Positions 1,123 to 54,900 of a stretch of DNA of 64,000 nucleotides are shown piece by piece. The stretch comes from a virus. Lineage: Duplodnaviria > Heunggongvirae > Uroviricota > Caudoviricetes. Every line of letters begins with the position of its first letter. The stretch's first letter is position 1. Below the pieces are notes generated by a model. The model saw nothing but the letters and a program-made list of their open reading frames with translations, did no database searches and was not told the origin of the DNA. The DNA is taken from positions 1 through 64,000 of IMG/VR virus record IMGVR_UViG_3300032007_000048, one strand, 5' to 3'. Both the position numbers and the translations under genes were made by a program.

Positions 1123-1380
1123 ATGGAGAAAAAGTTTTATCCGGTATTTAGTGTGGACATTTGTTTCACCGGTTATGCGATGCACTATGTTCTTATTGGT
1201 GCGGAGAGTGTGGAAGATTTGATTGCCCATATTCATGACATTCTAACAGATAATGACCTTGATTATGGTACTGTAAGTGTTGATGAACTTGCTTATGAGA
1301 CTTCTAGGTTTGAAGAAGTAAAGAATATGTACACTGATAAACCTTATGTTGTTCTTGACAGATATTCTTATTATGAATAA
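1123..1380 (+). CDS. hypothetical protein
   Basis: 85-aa ORF preceded by sigma-54-like motif at 1069..1084. Confidence 0.4.
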   Translation: MEKKFYPVFSVDICFTGYAMHYVLIGAESVEDLIAHIHDILTDNDLDYGTVSVDELAYETSRFEEVKNMYTDKPYVVLDRYSYYE

Positions 1381-1434
1381 TAAAAATTTAAAAGATAAGG
1401 ATTTATGAATAATAAAAATTTAAAAGATAAGGAT
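1373..1434 (+). repeat. 30-nt perfect direct repeat x2 (atgaataataaaaatttaaaagataaggat)
   Basis: Copies at 1373..1402 and 1405..1434. The first overlaps the stop of gene 1123..1380 out of frame; the second is the start of gene 1405..1650. Confidence 0.8.
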
Positions 1435-4933: not shown

Positions 4934-6319
4934 ATGACAAAGAGAAGAAAAAACATTGGTTTTTATGTTTATGAAGATTTTAACACTGATTCCGTTGCTA
5001 TTGAAGATAGGAATGACATTACCCTTGAGGAACTTGCAGAAGGGTACATTGACAATTCCGAAAACATTGAAGGAGGCGTTTTTGCGTGGAATGGCAAACT
5101 CAATATTCGTCCGAAATTTCAAAGAGCTTATGTTGTTGAAAATAATGAGGTGTGGAAGGCAGCTCTTGCGAGGAGTGTTGTTAACGGTCAACCAATAGGT
5201 ACAATCTATTTTGGTGAAACTGAAGAGGGTAAAAAGTATATCAATATTGATGGCCAACAGAGGCTTATGACCCTTCTATCATTCATTAACGGTCAAGATA
5301 CCATTAAAATGTTTGATGGAACAAAAGATAAAGATGTGATGTTTGAAGAACTTTCTGATAAAATGCAGAGAAGGTTTAAACTGTATCGACCGTCTATCAA
5401 GATTTGTAGAGGTACAGAAAAAGCACTCCTAGAGTGGTTCAAGACTATCAATCAACCCACAACTGTTCTTACCCCACAAGAACTGCGTAATGCTGCTTTC
5501 AATGGAATGTGGTGTGAACATATCAAGATGTATTTCTCAAAAGTCAAGGCATCTGCAACTGCAACTGAATATAATGCAGATTTTCTCTATAAGGGTGGCG
5601 AATATTTTTATGGTGATTTTTCCCTCCCTCTTGACCCTACAAGACAGGATGTTCTTGAAATGGCACTCGATTGGGCATCTATGCAAGTATTCGGTGTTAA
5701 TGCTGACCTTACAAAAGATGAACGAATTGAGTCTTATATGGCTATGTATGCGAACCCTGAAATATCTGTAAATGTTGAAGATAATGGAACTGACCTCGTT
5801 AATCGTTATAAGGCGGTTATAGATTGGGCAAGAAAGATGTTTTGTTCTGAGTATCTTGACCAAAAATGTGCAAAGAACGTTGAATGGGGTCGTCTTTATG
5901 CAACATATGGTGAAAATGAATATGACATCGTGAAACTCAATGCTGATGTTGACAAATATATTATGGATGAGGAAGTTACTGCTAACTCAGCTGTTTTTGA
6001 GTATGCATTGATGGGCTGCCCTATAGAGAAGCGCAGTATGCTTGTTCTCCGTTCTTTCAAAGTACCCGAAAAGATGAAGATGTATAAGATGCAGGGCGGA
6101 ATTGACCCCATTGATGGTTGTAAATATAAATTTGAAGATATGGATGCACATCACATTGTTGCGTGGGAAAATGGGGGTAAAACTGAAATTTCAAACGGCG
6201 TAATGATTTCCAAAACCAACCACAAGAAGGTTCTTCATGCAGAACTGACATATAATGCTGAACAGATTCGTCAGAAACGAGATGAACTTATTGAAAGGAT
6301 AAAATCCACCAAAAATTAA
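4934..6319 (+). CDS. DUF262/DUF1524 (GmrSD-like) nuclease
   Basis: 461 aa. The N-terminal DGQQR motif (NIDGQQRLMTLL) is typical of the DUF262 ParB-like domain. The C-terminal HHIVAWENGG...N...H HNH-like motif is typical of DUF1524. Confidence 0.65.
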   Translation: MTKRRKNIGFYVYEDFNTDSVAIEDRNDITLEELAEGYIDNSENIEGGVFAWNGKLNIRPKFQRAYVVENNEVWKAALARSVVNGQPIGTIYFGETEEGKKYINIDGQQRLMTLLSFINGQDTIKMFDGTKDKDVMFEELSDKMQRRFKLYRPSIKICRGTEKALLEWFKTINQPTTVLTPQELRNAAFNGMWCEHIKMYFSKVKASATATEYNADFLYKGGEYFYGDFSLPLDPTRQDVLEMALDWASMQVFGVNADLTKDERIESYMAMYANPEISVNVEDNGTDLVNRYKAVIDWARKMFCSEYLDQKCAKNVEWGRLYATYGENEYDIVKLNADVDKYIMDEEVTANSAVFEYALMGCPIEKRSMLVLRSFKVPEKMKMYKMQGGIDPIDGCKYKFEDMDAHHIVAWENGGKTEISNGVMISKTNHKKVLHAELTYNAEQIRQKRDELIERIKSTKN

Positions 6320-20436: not shown

Positions 20437-20895
20437 ATGGAAACAATACCTGAAATCGGAAAATATTATTATTTTTGGGACGATGGTAAGTCATCACCCT
20501 CAAGACATTACATTTGTAAATGTGAAAGGGTCATCACACCTGATGAGGCGAAAAACATTATGGTTAATGTTCCTTATGATGATGACCTGACAATAGAGAC
20601 AACATTGTATGACCATTGGCTTGAGTCAGAAATGCCTGAACATGATTGGCTATATGCCAAAGAGACAGATTATTTCGTTGAGTGTTCATGTCCAAAATAT
20701 GATGAGAATAACCTTTGGTTCGTGAGGACAAGGGATGGGGGATGGTTCAGCATGAATATACAAAACTGGTGGCAAGGTGGTACACTTGATGTGGATGAAA
20801 AAATACTTGACGGAATAATTGAAAATATCAAAAAATATCCTGAGTGGTATCCTAACCAAGAGGAATGGATAAAAAAATATACTTGTTTATACTAA
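20437..20895 (+). CDS. hypothetical Cys-containing protein
   Basis: 152-aa ORF with CKCE...CSCP pairs. Confidence 0.4.
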   Translation: METIPEIGKYYYFWDDGKSSPSRHYICKCERVITPDEAKNIMVNVPYDDDLTIETTLYDHWLESEMPEHDWLYAKETDYFVECSCPKYDENNLWFVRTRDGGWFSMNIQNWWQGGTLDVDEKILDGIIENIKKYPEWYPNQEEWIKKYTCLY

Positions 20896-20908
20896 ATAAG
20901 AAATATTA

Positions 20909-20924
20909 CCCATTGGTGTGTGGG
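20909..20924 (+). other. GC hairpin CCCA-N8-TGGG just after the stop of the upstream gene
   Basis: cccattggtgtgtggg. It is related in form to the hairpins at 22331..22348 and 31337..31356. Confidence 0.5.
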
Positions 20925-20960
20925 TTAATGCTCGGAAAATCAATTTGATAGAACGAGAAA

Positions 20961-21124
20961 GTTGTAATTCCATTTAATTTATGGTTGACTAACACCTAGT
21001 CTAACAAACCTAAAAAGCCTGACAGGTTGTAATTCCATTTAATTTATGGTTGACTAACATCTGCCATGAGGCATCTTGACAAGAACAGAAGTTGTAATTT
21101 TATTTACTTTTTTACATTAATAAA
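20961..21124 (+). CRISPR. CRISPR-like mini-array: three 34-nt repeats (third degenerate), two 31-nt spacers
   Basis: R1 20961..20994 and R2 21026..21059 are identical (GTTGTAATTCCATTTAATTTATGGTTGACTAACA). The spacers 20995..21025 (cctagtctaacaaacctaaaaagcctgacag) and 21060..21090 (tctgccatgaggcatcttgacaagaacagaa) are unique and equal in length. R3 from 21091 keeps GTTGTAATT and then diverges. The array lies 51 nt upstream of the TnpB-like gene on the same strand. Confidence 0.6.
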
Positions 21125-21162
21125 CTATTTATAAATAGAAAAAATAAAAATCTATTCATCTT

Positions 21163-22323
21163 ATGACAAGAGCATATAAATATAAACTTAAACCAACTGT
21201 GAAACAACAAAAATTGTTTTCACAAGCCTTTGGTAATGCTCGCTTTATCTATAATTGGGGACTTAATCGTAAAAAAGAAACCTGGGAAAAGGAACATAAA
21301 AATGTTACATATATACAACTGGCCAAAGAACTTACTTTACTTAAAAAAGACGGTGAACATGATTGGCTGAAACAATGTGCTAACGTTTGTCTACAACAAT
21401 CACTTAGAAACCTTGATAATGCCTATACCAGATTCTTTAAAGCAAAAAAAGGCTTTCCTAAATTTAAATCAAAGAAAAATAGTGTTGATTCTGTTAAATA
21501 CATTGCTGCTGTTCACTTTGATTTTGAAACCATGAGAGTATCAGTGCCATGTATAGGTAAAGTTAAATTTCTTAAAAATTGCGAATTTGATGTAAACACA
21601 GTAAAATTGGGTACTTTAACTGTTACAAAAGATAAATGTGGTGATTATTGGTGTACCATAGTAGTTGATGACAATAAACCAAACGTATCGAAAACCAAGA
21701 TATGTGAGGAAAAAACTGTTGGCATTGACTTAGGTGTTAAAGATTATGCAATTCTATCTGACGGTACAAAGTACGGAAATCCTAAGTATCTTGAAGCAAA
21801 ACAACAACAGTTAGCAAAAGCACAACAATGGCTTTCCAGAACACAAAAAAATAGTAAACGTCATGAAAAAGCAAAATTATATGTAGCAAAGTTACATAGA
21901 AAAATTGCTAACAGAAGAAATGATTTTCTTCATAAGTTAACAACCATGTTGATTAATGGTGAATATGACACATTTTGTATGGAGAATCTTAACATTACTG
22001 GTATGACACAGAATCATAATCTTGCAAAGAGTATAAATAGTGTTGCATGGAATGAATTTGTTAGACAATTGACATACAAGTGTGAATGGTGTGGAAAGAA
22101 CATTGTATTCATTGGTAGATATGAACCAAGTAGTAAGACATGTAACAAATGTGGATACATTGACAAGGAACTGAAGTTATCTGATAGAGAATGGATATGT
22201 CCAATATGTGGTGAACATCATGATAGAGATGTAAATGCAGCAATTAATATTAAGAACATGGGGTTACATCCACAGGCATTAATTGGCATTGAACAAAAAA
22301 TAGAAGAAATTAATAATAAATAA
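21163..22323 (+). CDS. TnpB-like RuvC/zinc-finger nuclease (IS605 OrfB family; candidate compact type V effector)
   Basis: 386 aa. RuvC-I VGIDLGVKDYA, RuvC-II FCMENLNITGM, zinc finger CNKCG...CPICG, RuvC-III HDRDVNAAINI. The OrfB-type N-terminus is present. No TnpA gene is nearby. Confidence 0.8.
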   Translation: MTRAYKYKLKPTVKQQKLFSQAFGNARFIYNWGLNRKKETWEKEHKNVTYIQLAKELTLLKKDGEHDWLKQCANVCLQQSLRNLDNAYTRFFKAKKGFPKFKSKKNSVDSVKYIAAVHFDFETMRVSVPCIGKVKFLKNCEFDVNTVKLGTLTVTKDKCGDYWCTIVVDDNKPNVSKTKICEEKTVGIDLGVKDYAILSDGTKYGNPKYLEAKQQQLAKAQQWLSRTQKNSKRHEKAKLYVAKLHRKIANRRNDFLHKLTTMLINGEYDTFCMENLNITGMTQNHNLAKSINSVAWNEFVRQLTYKCEWCGKNIVFIGRYEPSSKTCNKCGYIDKELKLSDREWICPICGEHHDRDVNAAINIKNMGLHPQALIGIEQKIEEINNK

Positions 22324-22446
22324 ATGGAATCCCCATCGGGAAGTGGGGCTATGAACGGAATCGAAAGTAAACGTTAAGATAGTAAATCTTGTGCAAACAA
22401 GTATATCATTCCCTAAAAAAGTATAAAGAAAAAAAAATATTAGTAT
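22324..22446 (+). ncRNA. candidate guide-scaffold RNA region (omegaRNA or tracrRNA-like) downstream of the TnpB-like gene
   Basis: A 123-nt non-coding gap begins with the GC hairpin ccccatcgggaagtgggg (22331..22348) immediately after the stop codon. Its position is analogous to TnpB right-end omegaRNA. This is inference only. Confidence 0.3.
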
Positions 22447-23222: not shown

Positions 23223-23984
23223 CTAAACATTATCCTGTACTGTCCAACCTGTCGGAATACCACTTGTACCTGTTGTCCAAGATGCCATTGATGAGTGTTT
23301 AACAAATGTACCTGTACTTGCTACACTATTTACCCAATTATATGTACAATTACTTGCTGATATATCAGTTGCAAGACATTTAATATAGTTAAGATTTGTA
23401 CAACCTTCGAACATCTGATAATAACAATAATCTGTTAATGTTGTTGCAGGTAATTCAGGTGCTGTGGTTAGATTTGTACAACCAATGAACATTTCATAAT
23501 AACAGCCTTCTGTTAATGTAGTTGCAGGTAACGAAGGTGCTGTAGTTAAACTTTCACAACCTTGGAACATACTACCATAACAACTCTGTGTCAATGTTGT
23601 TGCAGGTAACAGTAGTTCACTTGCATCGGTTAAACCTGTACAATGAGTAAATAATCCATAAAATGTATAAGCATTTTCCAATGTGGTTAATGTACCAAAA
23701 TTAATACTATTAATCAACGACATTATATTACCTTTTACTTTGAATCCTGCCGTACTACTCATGAATCCGTTAAATGATATTTTTTTTCCCCCTGAAGGAT
23801 ATGTTGCATAATTTGCGTTATTTCCACGGAATTGTAAGGTGTCACCTGAAACAACTTGTATAAGTGTTTCACCTCTTGTGGAAGTTATGGATGTCCATGT
23901 TGAGCCATTATCTTTACTATACTCAATAGTTCTGGTAAAACCGGTGCCCAGTGTCCCCCAATAGATTATACCGTCATTAGTTAT
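23223..23984 (-). CDS. LRR (BspA/LRR_5-like) receptor-binding module B, in frame with upstream gene across a TAG codon
   Basis: The ORF track gives 23223..23762 (179 aa, starts MSSTAGF). A further 74 sense codons (23763..23984, ITNDGIIYW...FRGNNANYATY...) continue upstream in the same frame, with no ATG/GTG/TTG, back to the TAG stop of the 424-aa gene. The extension is homologous to the N-domain of paralogs. The frame was verified base by base. Confidence 0.5.
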   Translation of the reverse strand: MTNDGIIYWGTLGTGFTRTIEYSKDNGSTWTSITSTRGETLIQVVSGDTLQFRGNNANYATYPSGGKKISFNGFMSSTAGFKVKGNIMSLINSINFGTLTTLENAYTFYGLFTHCTGLTDASELLLPATTLTQSCYGSMFQGCESLTTAPSLPATTLTEGCYYEMFIGCTNLTTAPELPATTLTDYCYYQMFEGCTNLNYIKCLATDISASNCTYNWVNSVASTGTFVKHSSMASWTTGTSGIPTGWTVQDNV

Positions 23985-25259
23985 CTAAAATGTTAAAGGT
24001 TGGGATTTTTCATTTATTCTATTCCAATTAACAGGTATACCGTTAACACCTATTGTCCAATCAACACCGTCATTTGCCGCAACAAATGTACCTGATGATG
24101 CCACACTTTCTACCCAATCCAATGTACAATCAGTTGCTGATATATCAGTAGCAAGACATTTAATATAATTAAGTTCAGTACACCATCCGAACATACCTCT
24201 ATAACATTCATTTACTAATGTTGTTGCAGGTAACTCAGGTGCGGTTGTAAGACTTGTGCAACCATAGAACATCCTATAATAACAACCATCAGCTAATGTA
24301 GTCGCAGGTAACTCAGGTGCAGTGGTTAAGCCTGTACATTCCCTGAACATATAATAATAACATCTATTAGCTAATGTGGTCGCAGGTAATTCAGGTGTTG
24401 TTGTTAGACTTGTACAACCCCTGAACATCTGACTATAACAATTATTTGCTAATGTTGTTGCAGGTAATACTAACCCACTTGCGTCAGTTAAACCAGTGTC
24501 AGACGCAAACATAAAATCATAACAGTTACTTGCTAATGTTGTCGCAGGTAGTTCAGGTACTGTGGTAAGATTTGTACAATCATGGAACATACCGTTGTAA
24601 CAACCTTCACCGAGGTTCATTGCAGGTAGTTTAGGCACACCAACAAGGTTTGAACAATTTGCGAACATTTCCCTATAACATTCAACGGTCAAGTTATCTG
24701 CCGGTAAAATAAGTTTACTTGCATCAGTCAAACCCGTACAATACCTGAACAAACAAGTAAAAACCAAGGAAGCTGTCAACGAGGACATCGTGCTGAAATT
24801 ATTTGCGTCAAGCAGTGACATAACATTACCTTTAACGTTGAAAGTGCAAGTACAACCGCTAAAAAAATTAGCTTTTTCATATGTGTCACTTAATGTTGTA
24901 TATGTAACACCTTGCGGTGCTCTAAAAAGCACTGTATCGCCTGACGACACCGTGATAGAGGTACCACCAGTGCTTGAGGTGATTGTTACCCAATCCTCAT
25001 CGTTTTTTTTGTATTCTATTGTTCGTAAACTGTTATCTGATTTTGCTTTCCAATAAATATCACCATCACCTGTTATTTCAAATGTAAGCGGTGTTGAGAA
25101 TTTTCTTTCTTCCTCAGTCATATTATAATTAACCTTGGTGTTATCCTCAGTATAACTTACCCAAGGCTCAAGATAATCAAAATTTCTTTTTGTATTATAT
25201 TCGTTTTCAGTTTCAAATAAATGGATGTATTCTTTTACTTCTCCCATATAATTTAACAA
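23985..25259 (-). CDS. LRR (BspA/LRR_5-like) tail/receptor-binding protein, module A
   Basis: 424 aa. An N-terminal beta-rich domain (YLEPWVSYTEDNTKV...PLTFEITGDG), then about seven 23-aa repeats (LPATTLAxxCYxxMFxxCTxLTTAPE), then the conserved C-terminus NYIKCLATDISA. The annotated start codon is TTG; ATG 25247 is a more likely start. Confidence 0.6.
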   Translation of the reverse strand: MLNYMGEVKEYIHLFETENEYNTKRNFDYLEPWVSYTEDNTKVNYNMTEEERKFSTPLTFEITGDGDIYWKAKSDNSLRTIEYKKNDEDWVTITSSTGGTSITVSSGDTVLFRAPQGVTYTTLSDTYEKANFFSGCTCTFNVKGNVMSLLDANNFSTMSSLTASLVFTCLFRYCTGLTDASKLILPADNLTVECYREMFANCSNLVGVPKLPAMNLGEGCYNGMFHDCTNLTTVPELPATTLASNCYDFMFASDTGLTDASGLVLPATTLANNCYSQMFRGCTSLTTTPELPATTLANRCYYYMFRECTGLTTAPELPATTLADGCYYRMFYGCTSLTTAPELPATTLVNECYRGMFGWCTELNYIKCLATDISATDCTLDWVESVASSGTFVAANDGVDWTIGVNGIPVNWNRINEKSQPLTF

Positions 25260-31659: not shown

Positions 31660-32649
31660 GTGAGGATGATGATTTTCCTTATTGTTAAAATATTTATTAT
31701 TATAATAACAAGTAAAATTACTAAATTAATTATGAGTAGATACATCCACAAATTTGACACAGTTACCGAATATACAACGGCAAGAAATAATAATTATCTT
31801 GAGCCTTGGGTATCTTATACTGAGGAAAATACCAAAGTTGATTATAATAAAGAAAAGTGGCCTTTTGGTTTACTTGAGACACCACTTACATTTGAGATAA
31901 CGGGTGGCGGTAATATTGTTTGGAATGCACGTAACACCGCATTAACTAAAACCATTGAATATAGTAAAGATAATGGTGCGACATGGACATCCATTACAAG
32001 TAATACCGGCTCATCAGTACCAAGTATATCAGTTGTGTCAGGTGACACCTTACAGTTCCGTGGAAATAACACCACATATGGCACATCATCTTATTATAAC
32101 ACATTCAGCGGTAGTACTGCACAATTCAAGGTTAAGGGTAATATAATGTCTTTGATTAACTCAACTAATTTCAGTGGACTGACCACATTCGAAAGTGATT
32201 ATACATTTTATATCTTATTTGCTGCTTGTACCGGTTTAACTGATGCAAGTAAACTACTGTTACCTGCAACTACATTAACAGAAAGTTGTTATAATGGTAT
32301 GTTCCAAGATTGTACAAGTCTAACAACAGCACCACAGTTACCTGCAACAACATTAGCAAAGATTTGTTATAGTAGTATGTTCTATGGTTGTACAAGCCTT
32401 ACCACCGCGCCTGAACTTCCTGCTACTACATTGGCAAATTATTGTTATAGTAGTATGTTCCAAGGTTGTACTAATCTTAATTATATTAAATGTCTTGCCA
32501 CAGATATATCAGCAAGTGATTATACAATGTATTGGGTACAAGGTGTCCAAACATCAACAGGTACATTTGTCACCCCATCAACTACCGATTGGTCATCAAA
32601 AACAGGTACAAGTGGTATTCCAAATGGTTGGACAAGGGTTGATGCTTAG
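31660..32649 (+). CDS. LRR (BspA/LRR_5-like) tail/receptor-binding protein
   Basis: 329 aa. N-terminal TM/signal, the N-domain (YLEPWVSYTEENTKV...PLTFEITGGG), three or four 23-aa LPATTLxxxCYxxMF repeats, and the C-terminus NYIKCLATDISAS. TAG stop. Confidence 0.6.
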   Translation: MRMMIFLIVKIFIIIITSKITKLIMSRYIHKFDTVTEYTTARNNNYLEPWVSYTEENTKVDYNKEKWPFGLLETPLTFEITGGGNIVWNARNTALTKTIEYSKDNGATWTSITSNTGSSVPSISVVSGDTLQFRGNNTTYGTSSYYNTFSGSTAQFKVKGNIMSLINSTNFSGLTTFESDYTFYILFAACTGLTDASKLLLPATTLTESCYNGMFQDCTSLTTAPQLPATTLAKICYSSMFYGCTSLTTAPELPATTLANYCYSSMFQGCTNLNYIKCLATDISASDYTMYWVQGVQTSTGTFVTPSTTDWSSKTGTSGIPNGWTRVDA

Positions 32650-36677: not shown

Positions 36678-39600
36678 ATGGCAAGAAGAAGGTTATTGTT
36701 CTCATATTTTTATTTAACATATAACAATCAGAAATATGGTGCTGAGTTCACGATATTACCGTTTAGTGAGGACGGTGATAACGCGGTTTTTTCAGTGACA
36801 TCAAGTAAACCTTGGGTATTGGTAAGTAAACCTGAGTGGGTCACATTATCAGCCAATGAGGGTGGAAAAGGTGAGACAACTGTTAATGTCTCTGTGGGTG
36901 TTAATCCTGAAACAGATATCAAAGAGGGTGACATCATCATAAGAACTATTGACGGTAGGTACAACGCAATCGCCCATGTGTCACAAAACGCCAATGTACC
37001 TTATATCCTTATTGATGGTGTTGACGGTGACAAACAGGTTGAGACCGATTTCAGAAGTGTCAGCAGCGCGTTTAACATTGTTGCTAAAGGCGGTTGGGAC
37101 ATTGTATGCACAAACTGTGAATGCGATGTTGACGAGGTGACGGAAACCGCCGTGACAACAACACCTATTATTATAACATATAACCAAAACACTGACACCG
37201 CATCAACTAAGACGCTTACAGCGGTTCTTACAAATAAAACCGACAACAGTATAGTAAGGACAATCACTATAACACAAGCACCTCAATCCTATATTGACTT
37301 AAACAGAACCGCCACCGCCAAAATACCTTACAACGGTGGAACAACAACATTTACGGTTGACACAAATATTGAAAGCACATTGACTGTTCCAAGCAATATC
37401 AGTTTGGATAAAACAAGTGTGTCATCAAGTGACACAATCACAATGACTGTTCCTGCGTTGACAACAGCACAGACAAGTGATATCACATACACCGTTACCG
37501 GTAATACAAGTGATTACAGTATTGTTGACGGTATAGCACAAGACACACTGCAAATCACACAAGAGGCTTATCCTTATTTGGATATAACAAATCTTACGGT
37601 TAACAGCGCAACAACATCAGGTAATATACCTTTTAGCAGTAACTATGGTCTTGTTATTACACTGTCTGACCCAAATCTAAGTAATGTGACAGTAAACAAC
37701 AACAATGTTTCTTTTACAATAAGTGAGGCACCTGCATGGACTGCGCAAACATATACATTAAGAGTTGCCACCACAGGTACTGTCGGTCCTGCGATAAGAA
37801 AGGACATTTCAATAACAAGAGACGCTAAAACCGCATATTTAACAGCGACAGCCAGCACAACAAATAAAAATTACGGGTCTACCTACATTCCAATCTCAAC
37901 TAATGATGATGTCACTGTTGAGATTTTGAGTGGTGGTGACTGGCTTACATTTAAAAATGTGTCTAATGGTAAAGCAAATTTCACTGTACAAGAAAATACG
38001 GGTACTGATGAAAGAGTAGCAAGGATAAGGATAACCACACAACATAACGGCTCAAATGGTGAGCCTGTTGTTGTTGAGACAACGTTAACGCAAACGGGTA
38101 AAGAGATATTATATAAAACCATTAATCTTCTTTTCGAACAAGACAGTAATGGTGATTGGTATGTGACATCAAGTTCAGATATAAGTGACACAATATCTGT
38201 TACTATAAGATATAACTCATATACCACTGTAATTACTGAAAACACAACATCATCAACGAAAGTTATGGGGGTCAATACAGCAACAGGTACTTCCATAGAA
38301 GGACTGTTGACATTTTCACCAGACAGGTATAGTGCCGCTGACTATGTTTATATCTTAACATATAATGACGCATATGTAACTTACACCGCAGTCAGGGAAG
38401 ATATCACAGTCACTTATAACTTAAAACAAGACAGTGACGGTATTTGGTATGTGCAGACATCTTCATCACCTAATGTCAGTATTCCTGTCAATTTCAAATC
38501 AGGCTCTACCACAAGTAGTAACATAAGTAGTGTGTCAAACACATATGTGAGTACCGGTTTTAAAAACAGTGTGGGTAACAACAACCCCAACATTGTCGGT
38601 GGTGTGTCATCATATCTTGACACGGCGGCAAGTAAATTGTATGTTATAACATATAACAAGGGTACAGTCACACCTTATAGTGAGACCCTTACCAATGTAG
38701 TGGCTGATAGCATAACATTACGATATAGTGACACTGATTTCCTTGCCAATGGTTCAGCGTCAACATCATCTATGTACTGTACACCAGAATTGTTTAGTGT
38801 AAATTATACGGCGACATACAGCAATAGTTTTGACAGCACCACAAGAACAGAAGCAGGTAGTACATATGGTAACAATTTAATAAATGAAATTAAATATACA
38901 CTTGCGGCCACTGGAAGAGGCGGTATTCGTGATACTTATAAGGTTTATGCCGCCAATAGAGGTACAACAACAGGTGACCCAAGAAACATTTTAACTATTA
39001 CAGGTGTGTCCTTCACTGTTTTAGGACGGACACTTAGCGGTACTGTGACACCAATCACTTTCACACAGGAAGCAAACAGAGTACAAAGAACTTATGTGGA
39101 AAGCGCAAGTACCGTTACAAGTGCGGCCACAGGCTCACCAACAACAACCTATTCCGATATTGGTTTTACTGTGTCAACAGATTCACCAGGTAATACTTTT
39201 GACGCGGCAGGAAAGGTTGTGGGTAAAACTTGGAGTTCAATTGACTTAACCGTCACTGAGACCGGTAAAACAAATGTTACACAAACTTATCAATACAATA
39301 GTACAAGTGCATTTACCCTAAGTTATACTTCAGGTGCTAAAGGTAATGACACCACAACAGATGCTTGGACTGATAGCATTACAACAGAAGGTCCGAATTA
39401 TTCCAATAGGGCGACATTTGACACCACATCAAAACCAAGTTGGCTTACTGTTTCAACCAAAGGTACTGATAAGTATAATATAACGGCTCTAAATAGAGGT
39501 ACAACAACAGGTGATGAAAGGAGCAAGGAATTAAAATTCAAAAGCACCAAAGATTCTTCTAAAACAACCGGTGTCACAATCACACAGTTACAAAACTACT

Positions 39601-41414
39601 ATGAGACTTCAACATCCACTTCAACAAGAGTTGTCTCTGGAACTACAGTTGATTCAACAACATATAGTGGTGTGACAATTGACCTTGTTTTGACTGAGCA
39701 TAATATTAACGCTGATGGTAACACGCCCAACGGTAAGTCTTCCATTTCAGGTACAGCGACTGAAACAGGCGCGGAAATTAAACATTATGTACAAACAAGA
39801 TACACAGACACAGGTTATACATATACATTTGATTCAGGTGAGATAAGTGCAGGAACAAAAACTGACATAACAGGCGTACGTATTGAAGATAAACTTGTCA
39901 CCTCACCTTATACACTTGATAGAACAAGTTCGATTACTGAAAGTAGTAACCCCACAAGCAGTTTTACTATTTCTTCAACTAGTCCAAGAAGGATTACGGC
40001 ACCGAATAGAGGTACAACGGTAGGTTCGGCAAGAAGTGCAACGTACAAAGTTACAGCACTTCATGATAGTAGTGTGTCCGACAGTGAAACAATTACACAA
40101 CAGAAAAACGAAGTTATAAATAGTGGTGTTACCCCAACCACCGCAACAACACCATATAACACAACATATAGTAATGTGAACATTGTTCTTACATTATCAG
40201 AAAACACATTTAAGGCTGATGGTAATACTTTAAATGGAAACACTGCTGTGACTGCGACCGCAACAGAAACAGGTAACGCTGTTAACCACTATAAGGTGAC
40301 ACGAACAACCGCATATACTTACACTTCAAACGCCACAAGCAGTAGCACAGAATCGTTATCTGATAAAACAGTCACATCTACTTATACGCTTGATAGGACA
40401 AGTGATATTTCCAAAAGTAGTGGTAATAGTAATTTTAGTATTTCTTCAACCAGTGATAACCCAAGAAAAATTACTGTTCCAAGTAGATTTACAACGGTAG
40501 GTTCAGCAAGAAGTGCGACATATAAAGTTACGGCATCGGGTGATAGCAGTGTATCAGACAGCAAGACTGTTACACAACAAGCGAATGAAGTTGTTGGTGA
40601 GAAATACATTGATATTAGAAGTGGTGTTGAAATCAGTGCGGCGACCGCAACCAATTGTCATTTTGAATTAAATTCTAATTCATTTACCGCTAAAACAGGT
40701 AATTTGTCAACAAGTGTGGTTGTTAAATCTTCTATTGATACCCAAAGAATTACAGGTGTTACCGCTGATAGATATGATGTTTACTCATCTAACGCAAGTG
40801 CGTTAACTCATAATGATATGGTGGTATCAGCAAATACTGTTAATCAATATTATGTGCCTATTCAACCGACAGTAACAAAATACGGTTCATACAGTAGCAG
40901 TATTAGTGTCAGTAATCCTACTGTAAGTACAAGTAGTTACACTTATACAATTACTTGTCCAAATTTATCAACTGAAAGTGTAGTTACATTAGGAAATGTG
41001 GAATTTTCAAGTCCTTCCGGTTCATGCAGTAATAGAATTAATTTGTATTACTCTGGTGCCACAAGTACAGTTTATCCAACAGTATCAGCTTCTATGTACA
41101 TAGCCGATGGTTATTGGGGTGTAAATTTAATTTTTGATGCTTTGGACGCAACTACAGGTGTTTCATGGACTTGTGGCGGTTCGTACCAAGTAACAATTAC
41201 TGATGGTGGTAATGATTATCCTTACAGTGGTTACTTTAATGTTACTGGTCATTGTGATGATACGGAACAAGTGGTTATTGACGATGCAAGTGGTGATTTT
41301 TTATCCCACAAAAGAAAGGGCAATTCTATATTTTTAAGAAGTAACCATACAGTAAGTTCAACTGCATATTATTCACATGAAAATGTTTCTTGTAGCCAAC
41401 CAAGTGGCGTATAA
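36678..41414 (+). CDS. giant BACON-domain repeat protein (virion/tail associated)
   Basis: 1578 aa, S/T-rich. Multiple BACON-type repeats (for example PSWLTVSTKGTDKYNITALNRGTTTGDERSKELKF; SPRRITAPNRGTTVGSARSATYKVTA; KPWVLVSKPEWVTLSANEGGKGETTVNVSV). Confidence 0.65.
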   Translation: MARRRLLFSYFYLTYNNQKYGAEFTILPFSEDGDNAVFSVTSSKPWVLVSKPEWVTLSANEGGKGETTVNVSVGVNPETDIKEGDIIIRTIDGRYNAIAHVSQNANVPYILIDGVDGDKQVETDFRSVSSAFNIVAKGGWDIVCTNCECDVDEVTETAVTTTPIIITYNQNTDTASTKTLTAVLTNKTDNSIVRTITITQAPQSYIDLNRTATAKIPYNGGTTTFTVDTNIESTLTVPSNISLDKTSVSSSDTITMTVPALTTAQTSDITYTVTGNTSDYSIVDGIAQDTLQITQEAYPYLDITNLTVNSATTSGNIPFSSNYGLVITLSDPNLSNVTVNNNNVSFTISEAPAWTAQTYTLRVATTGTVGPAIRKDISITRDAKTAYLTATASTTNKNYGSTYIPISTNDDVTVEILSGGDWLTFKNVSNGKANFTVQENTGTDERVARIRITTQHNGSNGEPVVVETTLTQTGKEILYKTINLLFEQDSNGDWYVTSSSDISDTISVTIRYNSYTTVITENTTSSTKVMGVNTATGTSIEGLLTFSPDRYSAADYVYILTYNDAYVTYTAVREDITVTYNLKQDSDGIWYVQTSSSPNVSIPVNFKSGSTTSSNISSVSNTYVSTGFKNSVGNNNPNIVGGVSSYLDTAASKLYVITYNKGTVTPYSETLTNVVADSITLRYSDTDFLANGSASTSSMYCTPELFSVNYTATYSNSFDSTTRTEAGSTYGNNLINEIKYTLAATGRGGIRDTYKVYAANRGTTTGDPRNILTITGVSFTVLGRTLSGTVTPITFTQEANRVQRTYVESASTVTSAATGSPTTTYSDIGFTVSTDSPGNTFDAAGKVVGKTWSSIDLTVTETGKTNVTQTYQYNSTSAFTLSYTSGAKGNDTTTDAWTDSITTEGPNYSNRATFDTTSKPSWLTVSTKGTDKYNITALNRGTTTGDERSKELKFKSTKDSSKTTGVTITQLQNYYETSTSTSTRVVSGTTVDSTTYSGVTIDLVLTEHNINADGNTPNGKSSISGTATETGAEIKHYVQTRYTDTGYTYTFDSGEISAGTKTDITGVRIEDKLVTSPYTLDRTSSITESSNPTSSFTISSTSPRRITAPNRGTTVGSARSATYKVTALHDSSVSDSETITQQKNEVINSGVTPTTATTPYNTTYSNVNIVLTLSENTFKADGNTLNGNTAVTATATETGNAVNHYKVTRTTAYTYTSNATSSSTESLSDKTVTSTYTLDRTSDISKSSGNSNFSISSTSDNPRKITVPSRFTTVGSARSATYKVTASGDSSVSDSKTVTQQANEVVGEKYIDIRSGVEISAATATNCHFELNSNSFTAKTGNLSTSVVVKSSIDTQRITGVTADRYDVYSSNASALTHNDMVVSANTVNQYYVPIQPTVTKYGSYSSSISVSNPTVSTSSYTYTITCPNLSTESVVTLGNVEFSSPSGSCSNRINLYYSGATSTVYPTVSASMYIADGYWGVNLIFDALDATTGVSWTCGGSYQVTITDGGNDYPYSGYFNVTGHCDDTEQVVIDDASGDFLSHKRKGNSIFLRSNHTVSSTAYYSHENVSCSQPSGV

Positions 41415-48938: not shown

Positions 48939-51900
48939 ATGGATTATCAGAAAGTAAATAATACATGGAAACCTGTTTCCGGTTATTATAGAAAAAATAA
49001 TGGCGTTTGGGAAACAATAGATGCTACCACATTTGAAAATTTTGTATCATCAAATGTGGTAATGTTTGGTGGTTCTGTTGACGGAAACCACACCTTGACT
49101 ATAGGTGGTATCACAAGCATAAGTGGTGTGTCATGTTCTTTTACCGCAATATATGATAATATGACAAACGTGACAACTGCTGCGACTTGGAGTATTGTTA
49201 GTGGTTCTTCTTATGCCACAATAAGCGCACATACAGGTGAAGTTGAAATTTTGTCTACAGCAAATGAAAGCAATGTTATTATACAGGCATCATATCTTAA
49301 TGTGGCAACCACACAAGAATTAACATTAACTTATTATACAGGTTCAACAAGTGAGACTGAAACTGAAATTGATATAGATGAAAGTGGTAACACAACCACA
49401 ACCACAACAACCACCACAACAAACGAGGATGGTTCATCATCTGTTATCACAACAACAGTTGTCACAGATGAAAGTGGTAACACAATCGGTTCAAGTGAAA
49501 GTAATAAAGATATTAATTCTGATGGTTCATTTAATGCCACAACAACCAACTATGATAGTGAAGGTAATGCCACCGATGGTATTAATCAAAGTGGTGATAC
49601 AAGCGGTAATGTGAGTAGTCAGGAAGTTGAGTACGATGAAAGTGGTAATACAACTGTGACAGGTTATCAAATTGACACTTCAGGTAATCCAGATGGTACT
49701 AAAGAATTTAACGGTGATGGTGTCAACACTGAATACTATGCTTTTGATGTGACACAAGGATTTATCGCTGACATACATTTTGTTATCAATTGTAATAACA
49801 GTCCAACTGGACAAAACGAAAATCACCATAATATACTGACAGCGAAAAGAAGTTCACCTTCACCTTGGTACGGATTCCAATTAAGACAAACACTCACAGC
49901 AAAAACAATTACGTTGGGTACACAGTTCTCTACTGGAAGTAATATTAATACTACAATACAACCAATGCCTACAACAGGTAATAACCTTGAATATAACCTT
50001 AGAATTATATACAACCCTACCGTTTCAACAAATTCTTTTATTTGTAGAAACATGGCAACAGGACAAAATGTATATACAAGTAATGGAAAATTCCCAGACA
50101 TTGATGACCTTAGATATATTAAGGTCACAATTGGTTATGCTATGGATGAGAATGGAGACCCGTTCAGATATTCGGATATTGATGTGAAAAATTTCTCAAT
50201 CAGAAGACTTGAGCAACTTTATACTCCTGTTATATCTTGTAGTCATAATGTTGTTACCATTTCTTGTGAAACAACAGGTGCTGATATATATTACAAACTA
50301 AATCAAACCGGAAGTTTTATGCAATATACATCAGCATTCACAATAAGTGCTGACACAATTGTTGATGCTTATGCGGTATATTGTGATGTTAATAGTGATA
50401 CTGTCACTGAGGTTTGTAGATATGAAGAAGAAGGCGTGAAAGCACCTGTTATTACTTGTGACGGAACAGGTGTTACCATTACTTGTGAAACCGAAGGTGC
50501 AACCATTTATTATAAATGTAACCATGTTGGTGGATACAGTGCATATACACAAACATTCCCAATAACTGCCGATACTTTTGTGGAATCATACTCTATGTTA
50601 GATGAGGAAACAAGTCAGGTTGTCAGTGAAATGTGTATTTATAGTGAAACACATGATTATTCTCTTGACTATCTTACCTTTAGGGTTAAATCTGGCGGAA
50701 CAATTTCTTGGAATTCTGTTGGCACACAACAAGTGAAGGCAATTCAGTATAGTCTAAACAATGGTTCATGGACATATTTAGTGCCATCATCTGTTGGTTC
50801 ATCTGTTTCAATAACTGTGTCTGAGGATGATGTGGTAAGAATCAAGGGTTCTAATGCATCTTATGGTACAACCAATGAGGATTACATGGGATTCAGTGGT
50901 GGAACTGCGGTGTTTGATGTCGAAGGTAACATAATGAGTCTTGTTTACGGTGATAACTTTGTTGGAAATACCGCACTTACAGGAACATTTAACTTCTGTT
51001 CATTGTTTAAGCAAGCAAATGTTATATCAGCAGAAAACCTCGTCTTACCAGCAACCACTTTGACACCATACTGTTATCGTGCATTATTTGCCAATAGTGA
51101 AACAGTAGCAATTGCACCTGCGTTACCGGCAACAACACTTGCGGAAGGTTGCTATCGTTATATGTTCCAATATAATGCAATAAGAACCGCACCTGAACTT
51201 CTTGCACCTGTGTTGGTTTATGATTGTTATGAAGGAATGTTTAACAATTGTCATAACTTGAATTATATTAAATGTTTAGCCACTGATATTTCTGCATCAG
51301 CAGCAACTGCTAATTGGGTTACAGGTGTGGCATCATCAGGTACATTTATTAAAAATGCCAGTACAGAATGGGTTCTTGGTATTAGTGGTATTCCTACAAG
51401 ATGGGATGTTATTGATGAGGGACTTCAAGCACCTGTCATATCTTGTGATGGTCTCCATATAACTTTGGTATGTTCAACACAAGGTGCAAGCATTTATTAC
51501 AAATTGAATAGTCAAGGTGATTACGCATTATATTCCACACCTATATCAATTTCTGCTGATACTTTCATTGAAGCATACTCTATGTTAGATGAGGAAACAA
51601 GTGAGGTTGTCAGTGAAACTTGTATATATGATGATGGAATTGATGAACCTGTTATATATTGTGATGGTGAGTATGTCACCATATCTTGTGCAACAGGAGG
51701 TGCGTCAATCTATTATAAGTTTGATTTAGACCCTATTTATAATCCATATGATTCAGCAATTGCGATTTCAGCAGACACAGTATGTTATGCATATTCTGAA
51801 ATTGACGGTAGACAAAGTGAAGTTGTCTCAGCCACTTGTGTTTATGATGATTCACTTAAAGCACCTATCATTGAATGCAATGGAACTGTAGTTACAATTA

Positions 51901-54900
51901 CATGTCACACAGTAGGTGCTGATATAAACTATAGATTAAACGAAGAAGGAACATATTCCTTATATAATGCACCAATAGTTATTTCAGCAGACACAATAGT
52001 TGAGGCATATTCTGAGAAAGATAGTGTAGTAAGTACTATCGTAAGTGCATTTTGTGAATATAGTGATGTTCATGACTATTCCCTTGATTATCTTACGTTC
52101 AGAGTTCTTTCAGATGGTACAATCGGTTGGAATTTAGTTGGAACCGGTTTTTCTAAAACAATTCAATATAGTAAAAATGATGGTGCATGGACAACTTTAA
52201 CACCAAGTACTTCAACTACAATATCGGTTGTAACAGGAGATGTTATAAGGTTCAAAGGAACTAACATATCATACGCAAATGATAAATCAAATTATTCAGC
52301 GTTTGGTTCATCCGAAGCCAATGTAGGTGGTGGAACCGGCGCAACATTTAATATAGAAGGTAACATAATGAGTCTTGTTTACGGTGATAACTTTGTTGGA
52401 AACACCGCACTTACAGGAACATATAACTTCTGTTCATTGTTTAAATTAACAAATGTTGTATCAGCAGAAAACCTCGTCTTACCTGCAACCACATTAAAAG
52501 AGTATTGCTATCGTGCAATGTTTAGTAGATGTTATGAGTTAGTTAAAGTTGTCGAATTACCGGCAACAACGTTAGCAAAAGGTTGTTATTGGTATATGTT
52601 TGACAAATCAGCATCATTTGAGGTAGCACCTGAATTACCTGCCACAACACTTGTTGCGGAATGTTATGGACATATGTTCGAGGAATGTACAAGTCTTAAT
52701 TATATTAAATGTATGGCAACTACAGGATTTACCGCAAATAATTGTAAAGCATCATGGACAAGTGGTGTTTCCGCTACAGGTACATTTGTTAAAGACAGTT
52801 CTGCATCCACATCCACTTGGTCTAAAGGTGCAAGCGGCATTCCTACAGGTTGGTTAGTATATGATGATGTGGCAATTGATGCTCCTGTCATTTCCTGTGA
52901 CGGATATAACAACGTAACCATTACTTGTGATACAACAGGTGCTACAATTTATTACAAACTTAATGGCGAAGATAATTATGCCACATATAACACACCAATA
53001 GTCATATCTGCAACCACTGTTGTAGAGGCATATTCTGAAAAAGATGGCCAAGAAAGTAGAGTTGTTTCACAAACTTGCGAATACATAAGTGATGTTCCTT
53101 TGGAAGCATGTAACAGGGATTTAACCAAATGGACTTACAGCAATCAGGAAATAACAACACCATATTCTGTTAATAGAATAGATGGCCATAGTGCAAGTTA
53201 TGCAAAGGGAACATTCAATTTTGAGACAAGTTTCGCTTTGCGTGAGGTACAGCCAACATATTTATGGTTCCAACATGCAGACCAATCTGCCACAATATAT
53301 GTGGATGATGTTTTAGTGGAAAAACACTGGGGTGGTTATGCTGCGTTTTCAGTTGACATATCAGAGTTTGTTCATAGCGGAACAAACAGAGTAAAGGTTG
53401 CTCTTAAAAATAATGAGGGAAACAACCTTGCTCCTGCGAGTGCTGACTTTAACTTCAACGCCACACTTGGTAATGTTAAACTTTATACAAGTCCTGTAGT
53501 ACCTGATATGATTTATGGATATGACGGATTCCATGTCACTTCGGATGTGGCGTTATCTTCCGCAACCATTGAAGTTAAAACAAGTGTTCCTACAGGTGCA
53601 ACCGTAACTTGTGAGATAAGTGATGGTACATATCATTATGGTGCGTCAGGTAGTAGTACAGGTGAAGAAATGATATTTAGTGCAACTGTTACCAATCCTC
53701 ATCTATGGAATGGTACAACTGACCCTCACTTATATAACATAACACTTAATGTTTATCATAATGGTGATTTGTATCACACATATCAAAGACCTTATGGTTT
53801 GAGATTCTATAGTTATGTAATCAATGAAACTGTCAATGGAGACACATATACAGGCTTCTTACTTAATGGGCAACCATATTTGTTAAGGGGTTGCTGTATG
53901 CATGATGATATTGATGGAAAGGCTAACGCATTGGATGATGATGATTATACACAGACATTCAGCATTATTCAAGAACTTGGTGCTAATTTCCTACGCCTTG
54001 CACACTATCCACATCCAAAGGAAACCTATGATTGGTGTGATAGATTAGGTATTATTGTACAGACAGAAGGACCTTGTGTTAATAAAATGCAGTCAACAAT
54101 GCCAGCTGATTATTATACACACCTTATTGGACAATATAATGACATGGTAAATCAGCATTATAATCACCCATGTATTTGCTTCTGGGGATTAAGTAACGAA
54201 ACCACAACTGATGATAAGGCTTTTGCAAAAGAAAAGATAAATGGTTATATTGCACAAATTAAAGCCTTAGATTCAGAGCGTATGGTAGGTTATGTTATGG
54301 CTCAAGGTCCTGGTTCTGACCCAAGTGCATATTATAATAATCCAGATGCTGATTGGTTCGGTTGTAACATTTACGAAGGTTGGTATAGTAGCCCCAATTC
54401 AAATAATCCATCAACTCAGATAAACACTCGTGTTAAGAACGTTATAACCAATAAGAGTAAGGCTCTTGCTTATTCAGAGTATGGTTGTGGCGGTACGCAA
54501 CATTGTCACTCTGACGATTATATGACAACAACAACAAGGGGTAATCGTGAAAGGCATGATATTGAGTATATGATGTGGTTACATGAAGGTCATATAGCGG
54601 CAATTAAGAACTATCCTCAACTATTATTCACTTCACAATGGCAATTATTTGATATCGCAGTGTCTAACAGAAATGAAGGTTATACTGTATGTCTTGACGG
54701 TGTTATTACATCTACAAATGATAATTTAAGGAGATTAAATGACAAGGGTCTTGTTGAAAGAGACCATCGTACAAAGAAGGATGTTTTCTATCTTTACAAG
54801 GCATGGTGGAACACAACAGATATATTTGTACATATTTGTGGTAAAGACTATACCAAGATGACAGATAGGGTTATTAAATGTTATACTAACTATAATAATA

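Follow-up and report, generated by a model that had tools for sequence, protein, structure and literature searches.

TnpB transposons are considered the source from which type V CRISPR systems emerged repeatedly, their arrays originating through duplication of omegaRNA segments; in most of the intermediates described so far (TranC, V-U) this process has already reached its end state, and the array follows the gene. TranC (transposon-CRISPR intermediate) systems were reportedly introduced by Jin and colleagues in Cell in 2025. TranC effectors measure about 300–600 aa, and an ultra-compact phage-borne clade, represented by CauTranC9, averages 414 aa and has a 38-bp repeat (bioRxiv 10.1101/2025.09.28.678669; 10.64898/2026.03.27.714800). 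For type V-U systems, serial duplication of omegaRNA segments has been proposed as the origin of the array, and the array lies 3' of the gene in nearly all conserved Cas12-array associations (Altae-Tran et al. 2023, PMC10691335). In the omegaRNA of ISDra2 TnpB, a pseudoknot adjoins the guide and is separated from it by a single nucleotide (PMC10097598).

Here we describe a TnpB element in a phage genome in which a CRISPR array seems to be caught early in its formation from a transposon. The element lies in the window, the whole 64,000-nucleotide stretch of viral DNA analysed (IMG/VR record IMGVR_UViG_3300032007_000048, positions 1 to 64,000), and its features are listed in Table 1. In our best reading it is a TranC-like transposon-CRISPR intermediate within a phage transposon, a variant of the kind described in 2025.

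Table 1 Features of the TnpB element and its mini-array, in coordinates of the window.
Feature	Coordinates	Strand	Description
Decayed left-end terminus	20862..20905	+	GGAATGGATAAAAAAATATACTTGTTTATAC...; overlaps last codons of ORF 20437-20895
Left-end omegaRNA-like scaffold (leader + repeat 1)	20906..20997	+	Covariance model, RNAalifold, pair counts
Repeat 1	20961..20997	+	GTTGTAATTCCATTTAATTTATGGTTGACTAACACCT; end of left-end scaffold
Spacer 1	20998..21025	+	AGTCTAACAAACCTAAAAAGCCTGACAG; unique
Repeat 2	21026..21062	+	Single change, C to T at 21060
Spacer 2	21063..21090	+	GCCATGAGGCATCTTGACAAGAACAGAA
Terminal repeat remnant	21091..21107	+	GTTGTAATTTTATTTAC; 14/17 positions match repeat start
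Conserved tnpB 5' region	21108..21162	+	TTTTTTACATTAATAAACTATTTATAAATAGAAAAAA...; directly 5' of the ATG in every family member
tnpB	21163..22323	+	386 aa, ISDra2-type RNA-guided nuclease; RuvC triad D189, E274, D356 and zinc finger intact
Canonical right-end omegaRNA scaffold	22329..22414	+	Intact; covariance-model match 101.8 bits; marks transposon right end
Putative right-end guide DNA (flank)	22415..22434	+	Position relative to scaffold end

The initial annotation had recognized the ORF as a TnpB of 386 aa, and the motifs it named (VGIDLG, FCMENL, CNKC...CPIC and HDRDVNAAINI) are all present in the translation. The protein, which has roughly 7,000 homologues, matches the Pfam families HTH_OrfB_IS605, OrfB_IS605 and Cas12f1-like_TNB, and the three residues of its catalytic triad do not vary among 25 homologues. 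Of the solved structures, the nearest is that of ISDra2 TnpB (E 2e-75), with which it is colinear without insertions over residues 3–368; the match to LaTranC, the only solved TranC member, is distant and partial (E 9e-36). Judged by homology, the protein is an ordinary ISDra2-type TnpB and not a distinct Cas12-like effector, and with its TnpB domains and intact catalytic triad it looks active. The REC and WED accretion and the loss of transposon features that distinguish type V effectors are not seen, as omegaRNA and transposon ends are kept. The earlier likening to type V effectors accordingly needs correction, and the remark that 386 aa would be smaller than described Cas12f effectors and the phage-encoded CasPhi/Cas-lambda has been overtaken by the size range of TranC effectors.

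The flanking ORFs encode a 152-aa protein without a Pfam match and a Metallophos protein, neither of which is a TnpA. No TnpA adjoins the element in the window or its counterparts in about 12 related contexts, and no Cas family, cas1 and cas2 included, was found among the scanned window ORFs of at least 250 aa, in agreement with the first reading that tnpA and cas genes are missing. Stand-alone tnpB elements are common, so the absence of TnpA does not exclude membership in IS200/IS605.

The omegaRNA scaffold downstream of tnpB consists of hairpin H1 with loop GGGAA (22338-42), S2, a GAUA/UAUC stem, H3 and a tail UUCCC (22409-13) followed by U. It is conserved in alignment with covariation, and the sequence 3' of its end varies between copies; by analogy, the adjoining flank would serve as the guide of this right-end omegaRNA. 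A covariance model built from right-end scaffolds only also matched the region upstream of tnpB at 20906-20997 over its full length (34.1 bits, E 5.5e-5; next-best match in the window 12.9 bits), with the 3' end of the model aligned to the end of repeat 1. Full-length matches of 30–48 bits were obtained for all 14 loci with a left-end region, and the model gave no false match in about 470 kb or in other phage TnpB loci totalling 322 kb.

The left-end scaffold comprises H1 at 20908-20925 (loop GGUGU, 20915-19), S2, a 4-bp stem, H3 and a tail ACACC (20992-96), followed by U. Applied to each scaffold set independently, RNAalifold returned the same topology for left and right. In both scaffolds a pseudoknot next to the guide shows compensatory changes, GGGAA/UUCCC on the right versus GGUGU/ACACC on the left; this pseudoknot, which is not part of the model, is 100% paired, and three of its five pairs have changed on both sides. 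Standard pairs form in 97.9% of scaffold cells, compared with 47% or less when the partners are slid, and the covariation counts reflect few events, mainly the left-end/right-end split and some distant right ends, rather than many independent changes. G-U pairs are tolerated on the + strand only, an indication that the RNA is read in the direction of tnpB. Folding energies of scaffold and repeat are no better than those of shuffled sequence (z about -0.9), and structural support comes from covariation and the covariance model; Rfam has no family matching the array/tnpB region. Taken on this comparative evidence, the left-end scaffold and the right-end omegaRNA are paralogues, and the repeat is the 3' module of the duplicated scaffold.

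The mini-array spans 20961-21107, upstream of tnpB and on the same strand, and consists of two repeats of 36–37 nt and a 17-nt remnant with a period of 65 nt. The repeat unit is GTTGTAATTCCATTTAATTTATGGTTGACTAACA[C/T]CT, with its boundaries set by comparison with related loci and one position differing between the two copies; the pair is absent from shuffled versions of the window (0/100 shuffles with two matches). The change in repeat 2 would turn a G-C pair of the pseudoknot into G-U. The third copy holds only the first 17 nt of the repeat and then passes into the conserved tnpB 5' region, and a similarly truncated terminal repeat is found in four related loci (L001, L002, L053 and L054). 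The initial annotation had described three 34-nt repeats, two of them identical, separated by 31-nt spacers. The repeats are real, but two are longer and differ by one base, the third is the remnant, and the related loci place the spacers at 28–29 nt. The distance from array to ORF, previously given as 51 nt, is 55 nt from the end of the remnant to the ATG, or 38 nt if a 34-nt third repeat is assumed.

Thus delimited, the last 36–37 nt of the left scaffold (4-bp stem, hairpin, pseudoknot tail ACACC and U) have been reiterated into a CRISPR-like mini-array, and the 28–31-nt spacers sit exactly at the omegaRNA guide position. The internal repeats lack H1 and S2 and would have to rely on trans pairing over only about 5 bp, which counts against reading them as guides. 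The conserved region preceding the ATG probably holds the promoter and 5' UTR of tnpB; in a scan that covered sigma-70-type but not Bacteroidota-type promoters, matches were no commoner than in shuffles. A 13-nt complement of the repeat at 22318-22330 was considered as a tracrRNA anti-repeat and rejected as a chance match, since conservation is lacking in the 88–96% relatives L016, L053 and L054. A 9-mer, AGCCTGACA, is common to spacer 1 of the window and spacer 1 of L002, a match too short to be given any meaning.

In related phage contigs, at least eight related elements (68–97% protein identity) keep leader and repeat and carry 0–3 mutually unrelated spacers, mostly of 28–31 nt. Three spacers are present in L001, L002 and L053, two in L136 and one each in L054, L142 and L042; L010 has a single short spacer (16 nt), one spacer of L002 is 14 nt long, and L018 has a repeat remnant. 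In L055 and L140, a single repeat with no spacer is followed directly by the tnpB promoter region, and for this reason the left scaffold may first have had another role. Between loci, repeats are 92% identical and leaders 89–96%, and similarity between spacers equals that of shuffled sequence (0.35 for both). Spacer length is 29–34 nt in 15 of 17 when the conserved T after the repeat is counted with the spacer. Closely related copies carry different spacers, so that the turnover over conserved repeats anticipated in the initial annotation is indeed seen. Spacer GC, 0.41 against a phage background of 0.34 and reaching 60% in one spacer, points to a foreign origin. An assembly artefact is ruled out by recurrence of the same arrays in independent assemblies, from three samples for L010, L011 and L012 and from four for L136-L139.

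Leader and repeat are conserved together with the gene over 68–97% protein identity, and the alternative first offered, an orphan TnpB that had landed beside unrelated repeats, is rejected. It had also been proposed that a CRISPR-like reading would fail if the protein were an ordinary TnpB with a 3' omegaRNA and homologous insertions lacked the repeats; the former was found, but the repeats are kept in homologous insertions.

The transposon encloses the array, which is placed between its left end and tnpB. The carrier contigs are phage-like, and no adaptation genes were seen with the array, as expected for the phage-carried, adaptation-free array envisaged earlier. The position of the element relative to shared genes varies among related phage contigs, indicating that it moves as a unit. 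In a by-eye comparison of L013, L055, L010, L136 and L142, the left end of intact relatives is GGGAATGATATACTNGTTTAC, the reverse complement of the right end. The left terminus of the window copy is decayed, with a weak minus-strand covariance-model match at 20877-20909, and this copy may therefore be immobile. The DNA 5' of intact left ends had no consistent target-adjacent motif by eye, and a megablast search of the locus against 50,697 phage records returned no match.

Like TranC systems, the element combines a TnpB-sized nuclease of the IS605 lineage with a short adjacent array, lacks cas1/cas2 and retains the right-end RNA. The link between nuclease and array is consistent, with 1–3-spacer arrays in at least eight lineages at 68–100% identity. 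The repeat corresponds to the guide-proximal part of an omegaRNA scaffold, as in TranC, but its homologue is the duplicated scaffold at the left end, where the pseudoknot has a partner of its own (GGUGU/ACACC), and not the right-end RNA itself, which has not been split. The tracr-like part of this scaffold would be used in trans by the window array. Further differences from TranC are the placement of the array upstream of the gene, within the transposon, and the distant relationship of the protein to LaTranC, the sole TranC sequence compared.

The likeness to ISDra2 TnpB/omegaRNA (PDB 8BF8, 8EX9, 8H1J; PMC10097598, PMC8612924) extends from the colinear protein to an omegaRNA 3' of the gene that reaches the right end, and to a scaffold with a guide-adjacent pseudoknot and one nucleotide before the guide. 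Unlike ISDra2, the window element has no tnpA, carries at its left end an additional scaffold whose array holds internal, heritable spacers, and has ends that look like 21-nt inverted repeats, which is atypical of IS605. Type V-U and miniature type V systems (Cas12f, Cas12n, V-U6 to V-U45) share with it a TnpB-derived effector, short arrays and the lack of adaptation genes, and an array with variable spacers stands beside a RuvC effector here too. In contrast to these systems, the window array precedes its gene, the protein lacks REC and WED accretion and stands nearer TnpB than any Cas12, and transposon ends are retained.

We consider it probable, with some reserve, that the locus at 20862-22414 is a TnpA-less IS605-family TnpB/omegaRNA element in a phage genome whose left scaffold has grown into a guide array following a TranC-like logic. 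In this proposal, transcription of leader and array would follow the tnpB strand, with leader, repeat 1 and spacer 1 making up a complete omegaRNA-like guide and later repeat-spacer units serving as crRNAs whose tails pair with the GGUGU loop of the leader-derived, tracr-like 5' part (H1 and S2). TnpB with array RNAs would cut spacer-matching DNA next to a target-adjacent motif, and the right-end omegaRNA would keep the usual transposon-retention cutting. The spacers would presumably be captured in trans by host Cas1-Cas2, or by another route, and the targets would most likely be competing phages, other mobile elements or the host. The lack of adaptation genes with the array counts against this proposal as regards spacer origin. 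The protospacer search suggested by the initial annotation also came back empty: no protospacer for any spacer was found in the window, in related loci totalling about 450 kb, in INPHARED phages or in PLSDB plasmids, and exact 19–20-mers of window spacers 1 and 2, L002 spacer 3 and L001 spacer 1 returned self matches or nothing from IMG/VR. This absence from the databases searched counts against guide function, and the earlier idea of a weapon against competing mobile elements gained no support from these searches.

Phage mini-arrays without cas genes are known, and several host systems typically combine a 36-nt repeat with spacers of roughly 30 nt. The array could on these grounds be a solitary phage mini-array that borrows the CRISPR-Cas effector and adaptation of the host, with TnpB a mere neighbour. 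One relative (L052) even adjoins a Cas9 gene with its own 36-nt-repeat mini-array, which has the same 65-nt period and the start GTTGTA; its repeat, however, is a different sequence. A search of 185,579 GTDB species genomes with one exact degenerate pattern found no host CRISPR array with the window repeat, only chance single matches and L042, so the repeat is not borrowed from a host. Given also that the repeat is integral to an omegaRNA-type scaffold that diverges together with tnpB, we regard dependence on a host system as highly improbable.

An unlikely, if still credible, explanation is that the array is non-functional debris, in which the left scaffold is real and the extra units, produced by slippage, unequal recombination or aberrant transposition, are not guides. 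The failure to find protospacers in the collections searched and the lack of cas genes agree with this, as do the zero-spacer relatives L055 and L140 and the very short arrays, some of them eroded-looking (the 14-nt spacer of L002, the 16-nt spacer of L010, the repeat remnant of L018). Debris would, however, sit poorly with nearly identical repeats within arrays, with unrelated spacers whose length is held at about 29–31 nt in at least eight lineages, with an array state that persists over 68–100% protein identity and is stable across samples, and with the foreign origin suggested by spacer GC. It is quite improbable that the left scaffold and array serve as a regulatory or decoy RNA, which would titrate TnpB or steer it, without cleavage, to the promoter region of the element or elsewhere, and so govern expression of tnpB or the behaviour of the transposon instead of attacking foreign DNA. 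The three catalytic residues do not vary, and self-regulation would not need diverse, foreign-looking spacers unrelated to the element or the phage. Consistent with a regulatory role, L055 and L140 have their own conserved tnpB 5' region at the guide position, the window array lies directly upstream of this region, and domesticated TnpB relatives acting as RNA-guided transcription regulators are described (bioRxiv 10.1101/2023.11.30.569447).

One set of closely related elements (68–100% identity) displays the scaffold alone, a single spacer, and two- and three-spacer arrays, with the canonical omegaRNA and transposon ends still present in the array-bearing family and phages as hosts. The family offers a concrete system for following the conversion of a single guide RNA into an array. 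It makes testable whether a 37-nt handle and a trans-acting 5' scaffold are enough for the 386-aa nuclease, and how spacers are gained without cas1/cas2. The combination of a very small nuclease with a short crRNA handle and a format that is naturally multi-guide would also be of practical interest. A more speculative idea, which we think unlikely, is that the family preserves successive array-forming stages among its living relatives, from zero to one, two and three spacers, on the duplicated left-end scaffold of a TnpB transposon that is still mobile and hops between phages, with fixed-length capture that proceeds without dedicated Cas1-Cas2, for example through the transposition machinery, TnpB breaks or a hijacked unrelated host integrase. 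If true, CRISPR arrays would have a route of origin other than splitting of the right-end RNA, and spacer capture a new mechanism.

A comparable arrangement was found in two further IMG/VR loci, L061 and L062, which possibly belong to the published TranC clade 9. They resemble the window element in having a phage TnpB (372 aa in L061), an upstream same-strand array, a repeat ending in ...ACCT and an omegaRNA-like region at the 3' side. Sequence similarity between the L061 leader and right end was not significant. Their proteins are 47% identical to the window TnpB, and their repeat differs in sequence, length (38 nt) and period (73 nt). Because intermediate relatives have no array of any kind, the array of L061 and L062 probably arose independently of that in the window family.

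The array in the window has a period of 65 nt, and none of 100 window shuffles contained two repeat matches. The repeats are present as the initial annotation described them, while its lengths of 34 nt (repeat) and 31 nt (spacer) are replaced by 36-37 and 28-29 nt, with boundaries set by comparison with related loci.

Features of the element and of the surrounding window
Feature	Coordinates	Strand	Description
Repeat 1	20961-20997	+	GTTGTAATTCCATTTAATTTATGGTTGACTAACA[C/T]CT
Repeat 2	21026-21062	+	GTTGTAATTCCATTTAATTTATGGTTGACTAACA[C/T]CT
Third, partial repeat	21091-21107	+	first 17 nt of the repeat matched, no more
tnpB	21163-22323	+	386 aa; Pfam HTH_OrfB_IS605, OrfB_IS605, Cas12f1-like_TNB
Right-end omegaRNA scaffold	22329-22414	+	conserved, structured, 3' of the tnpB stop codon
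Giant ORF	36678-41414		1578 aa; BACON domains
Giant ORF	48939-55046		2035 aa; glycoside hydrolase family 2 and chitobiase-type domains
GmrSD_N protein	4934-6319		461 aa; GmrSD_N domain, weak HNH match
Tandem duplication	1371-1434		perfect, 32 nt, TTATGAATAATAAAAATTTAAAAGATAAGGAT x2

The stretch 3' of tnpB is, judged by its sequence, a canonical and intact omegaRNA scaffold. RNAalifold of 11 right-end scaffolds gave hairpin H1, stem S2, a 4-bp stem around hairpin H3 and an unpaired tail, and showed compensatory changes; the same topology came out independently for 13 left-end regions, each comprising the leader and the first repeat. Folding energies were unremarkable. A covariance model trained on right-end sequences alone scored 101.8 bits at the right end in the window. 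Its sole other significant match there was 20906-20997 (34.1 bits, E ~5e-5, model positions 1-86), the next best reaching 12.9 bits. The model matched the left-end region over its full length in 14 of the 14 loci having one (30-48 bits), and on 80 other phage TnpB loci (322 kb) it returned three true right ends and nothing else. The last model position aligns with the final base of repeat 1, and the spacers therefore occupy the exact omegaRNA guide position.

Outside the covariance model, a pseudoknot pairs the loop of H1 with the tail next to the guide. Right ends have GGGAA/UUCCC and left ends GGUGU/ACACC, with GGUAG/UUACC in L056 and GGUAA/UUACC in L143. This pseudoknot was 100% paired in the pair count, and in three of its five pairs both partners had changed; for the structure as a whole, 97.9% of cells were paired versus at most 47% with slid partners. 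This agrees with the solved ISDra2 omegaRNA, in which nt -5 to -3 pair with a 5' segment and one nt lies between pseudoknot and guide (PMC10097598). G-U pairs in several helices are compatible with the + strand alone, so the RNA is read in the tnpB direction and the degenerate repeat is distal. These results show two scaffolds of omegaRNA type in the element; in the left one, the 3' module recurs, interspersed with variable spacers whose length is fixed.

The right end of the transposon reads ...GTATATCATTCCC followed by T, past which copies diverge. The termini are inverted repeats of ~21 nt, GGGAATGATATACTNGTTTAC ... GTAAACAAGTATATCATTCCC (window 20862-20905 against 22393-22413, and intact relatives), an atypical arrangement for IS605-type elements. 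Read on the minus strand, the left terminus looks like the 3' end of an omegaRNA that points outwards. Contigs L143-L147 (P0039, 66% clade) share one TnpB protein and one upstream context, but directly past the end of the omegaRNA (...GGTATATAGTTACC) three different sequences occur; the right-end boundary is therefore a site of genome variation among them.

More than 7,000 homologues of the 386-aa TnpB were found, and loci were fetched for relatives with 62-97% protein identity.

Spacer states among related elements
Locus	Protein identity	Spacers
L002	97%	3
L053	96%	3
L001 (= L016)	94%	3
L054	88%	1
L055	88%	0, single repeat
L010/L011/L012	83%	1, short
L136-L139	73%	2
L042 (= L052)	72%	1
L142	70%	1
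L140	68%	0, single repeat

Leader and repeat are common to all tabulated relatives; L013, L018, L022 and L008 carry one repeat and then 27-48 variable nt, and the leader/repeat region is absent from relatives whose identity does not exceed 66% (L003, L056, L086, L057, L143-147). Inspection of these homologous loci for spacer turnover, as the initial annotation had advised, gave between-locus identities of 92% for repeats and 89-96% for leaders, with spacers no more similar than shuffled sequence. Spacer length was 29-34 nt in 15 of 17 (the conserved T after the repeat counted with the spacer), and mean spacer GC was 0.41 versus 0.34 for the window. Identical arrays recurred in independent samples and are therefore no assembly artefact. 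The carriers are related phages in which the element's position differs relative to common genes; the array thus moves as part of the element, which bears out its proposed tie to TnpB and leads us to reject the alternative of an orphan TnpB beside unrelated repeats. In L026 (Ga0233379_1010872, 1239 nt), a MITE-like derivative, tnpB is deleted except for its last ~90 nt; both the left end and the left omegaRNA-like scaffold survive, as does the omegaRNA of the right end.

By sequence, the 386-aa protein is an ordinary ISDra2-type TnpB (E 2e-75 to ISDra2 TnpB, colinear, residues 3-368), its matches to Cas12n, Cas12f and LaTranC, a solved transposon-CRISPR intermediate (TranC), being far weaker; the idea of a distinct Cas12-like effector is therefore dropped. 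RuvC residues D189, E274 and D356 are invariant among 25 homologues, all TnpB motifs quoted initially occur in the translation, and the nuclease looks active. As first claimed, no TnpA adjoins tnpB in the window and no Cas-like protein was seen among scanned window ORFs of at least 250 aa. The argument from exceptional smallness fails, since TranC effectors of ~300-600 aa, including a phage-borne clade with a mean of 414 aa, are described in two reports (bioRxiv 10.1101/2025.09.28.678669, 10.64898/2026.03.27.714800).

Most likely, leader, repeat 1 and spacer 1 would form one complete guide RNA, and later repeat-spacer units would act as crRNAs with a 37-nt handle, recruiting the leader-derived 5' part (H1 and S2) in trans by way of the 5-bp pseudoknot and the protein; DNA matching the spacers would then be cut by TnpB. 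TranC systems reportedly employ both crRNAs and right-end RNAs, as attributed to Jin et al. in 2025. Such use, the behaviour proposed here, is also described in bioRxiv 10.64898/2026.03.27.714800. Protospacers were found neither in the window and ~450 kb of related loci nor in INPHARED, PLSDB or IMG/VR (the last by exact 19-20-mers of four spacers). A sigma-70-type promoter scan, with Bacteroidota-type promoters outside its scope, was not above chance.

Constrained spacer length, conserved repeats and foreign-looking spacers argue for use of the spacers as guides in array-bearing copies, and it is unlikely that the array is non-functional duplication debris. As an idea about the ancestral state, a regulatory or decoy role gains from the relatives without spacers, in which the element's own promoter region takes the 'guide' position; for the left scaffold and array as a whole we consider it less probable still. 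Dependence of the mini-array on a host system is improbable: one exact degenerate pattern of the repeat found no host array in 185,579 species genomes. No adaptation genes were seen. The 36-nt repeat and ~30-nt spacer format resembles common host systems and the Cas9-linked mini-array in L052, which makes spacer capture in trans by host Cas1-Cas2 plausible.

In function the locus comes nearest to TranC and type V-U systems, in protein family to ISDra2-type TnpB. The locus has the defining features of an OMEGA (TnpB/omegaRNA) element except TnpA, as well as the TranC architectural features, and lacks those of a diverged Cas12. Four points depart from what has been described. The array lies upstream, inside the transposon, whereas Altae-Tran et al. 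(PMC10691335) report a downstream array for almost all conserved associations of Cas12 with arrays; the repeat originates in a duplicate scaffold at the left end, which has a pseudoknot partner of its own; the RNA of the right end is left unaltered; and 0-, 1-, 2- and 3-spacer states coexist among close relatives in phages.

The window looks like phage, with PHROG matches to RNA ligase, helicase, nucleotidyltransferase and methyltransferase. Its further genes, for a sigma factor, an amidase and giant proteins of BACON and GH2 type, suggest a Bacteroidota host; the two giant ORFs are consistent with a Bacteroidota-associated phage. The GmrSD_N protein is possibly a phage-borne nuclease against modified DNA. 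Coding repeats of 78 nt run through 23392-24567 and 32253-32486, spread over three ORFs (23223-23762, 23985-25259, 31660-32649), and encode leucine-rich-repeat-like 26-aa units with a CY..MF...C..L motif.

Other CRISPR-like loci were met among the fetched contigs. At L052:11172-15300 (Bacteroidales MAG JAFURF010000006.1, the L042 record), a 1212-aa Cas9 (Pfam Cas9_a, HNH_4) lies directly downstream of the related TnpB mini-array element; its N-terminal RuvC-I is LGLHLGTSAIGWA, with His at the expected catalytic Asp. It is followed by its own degenerate mini-array (36-nt repeat GTTGTATCTTGATGTAATTTGAGAGTGACATACAAC, period 65-66), with no cas1/cas2 at the locus, in a plasmid- or phage-like neighbourhood (Rep3_N, YopX, RadC). 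Another phage TnpB (372 aa, 47% identical) in L061:1194-1500 and L062 (IMG/VR UViG_3300010281_000249, 3300049698_000263) has an upstream array on the same strand, with 2-5 copies of a 38-nt repeat (GTGCGGATGATAGATACAGGGAAATTATCATAGTACCT, period 73 nt), differing spacers and a retained 3' omegaRNA-like region; these two loci may represent the phage-borne TranC clade 9 already in the literature (38-bp repeat).
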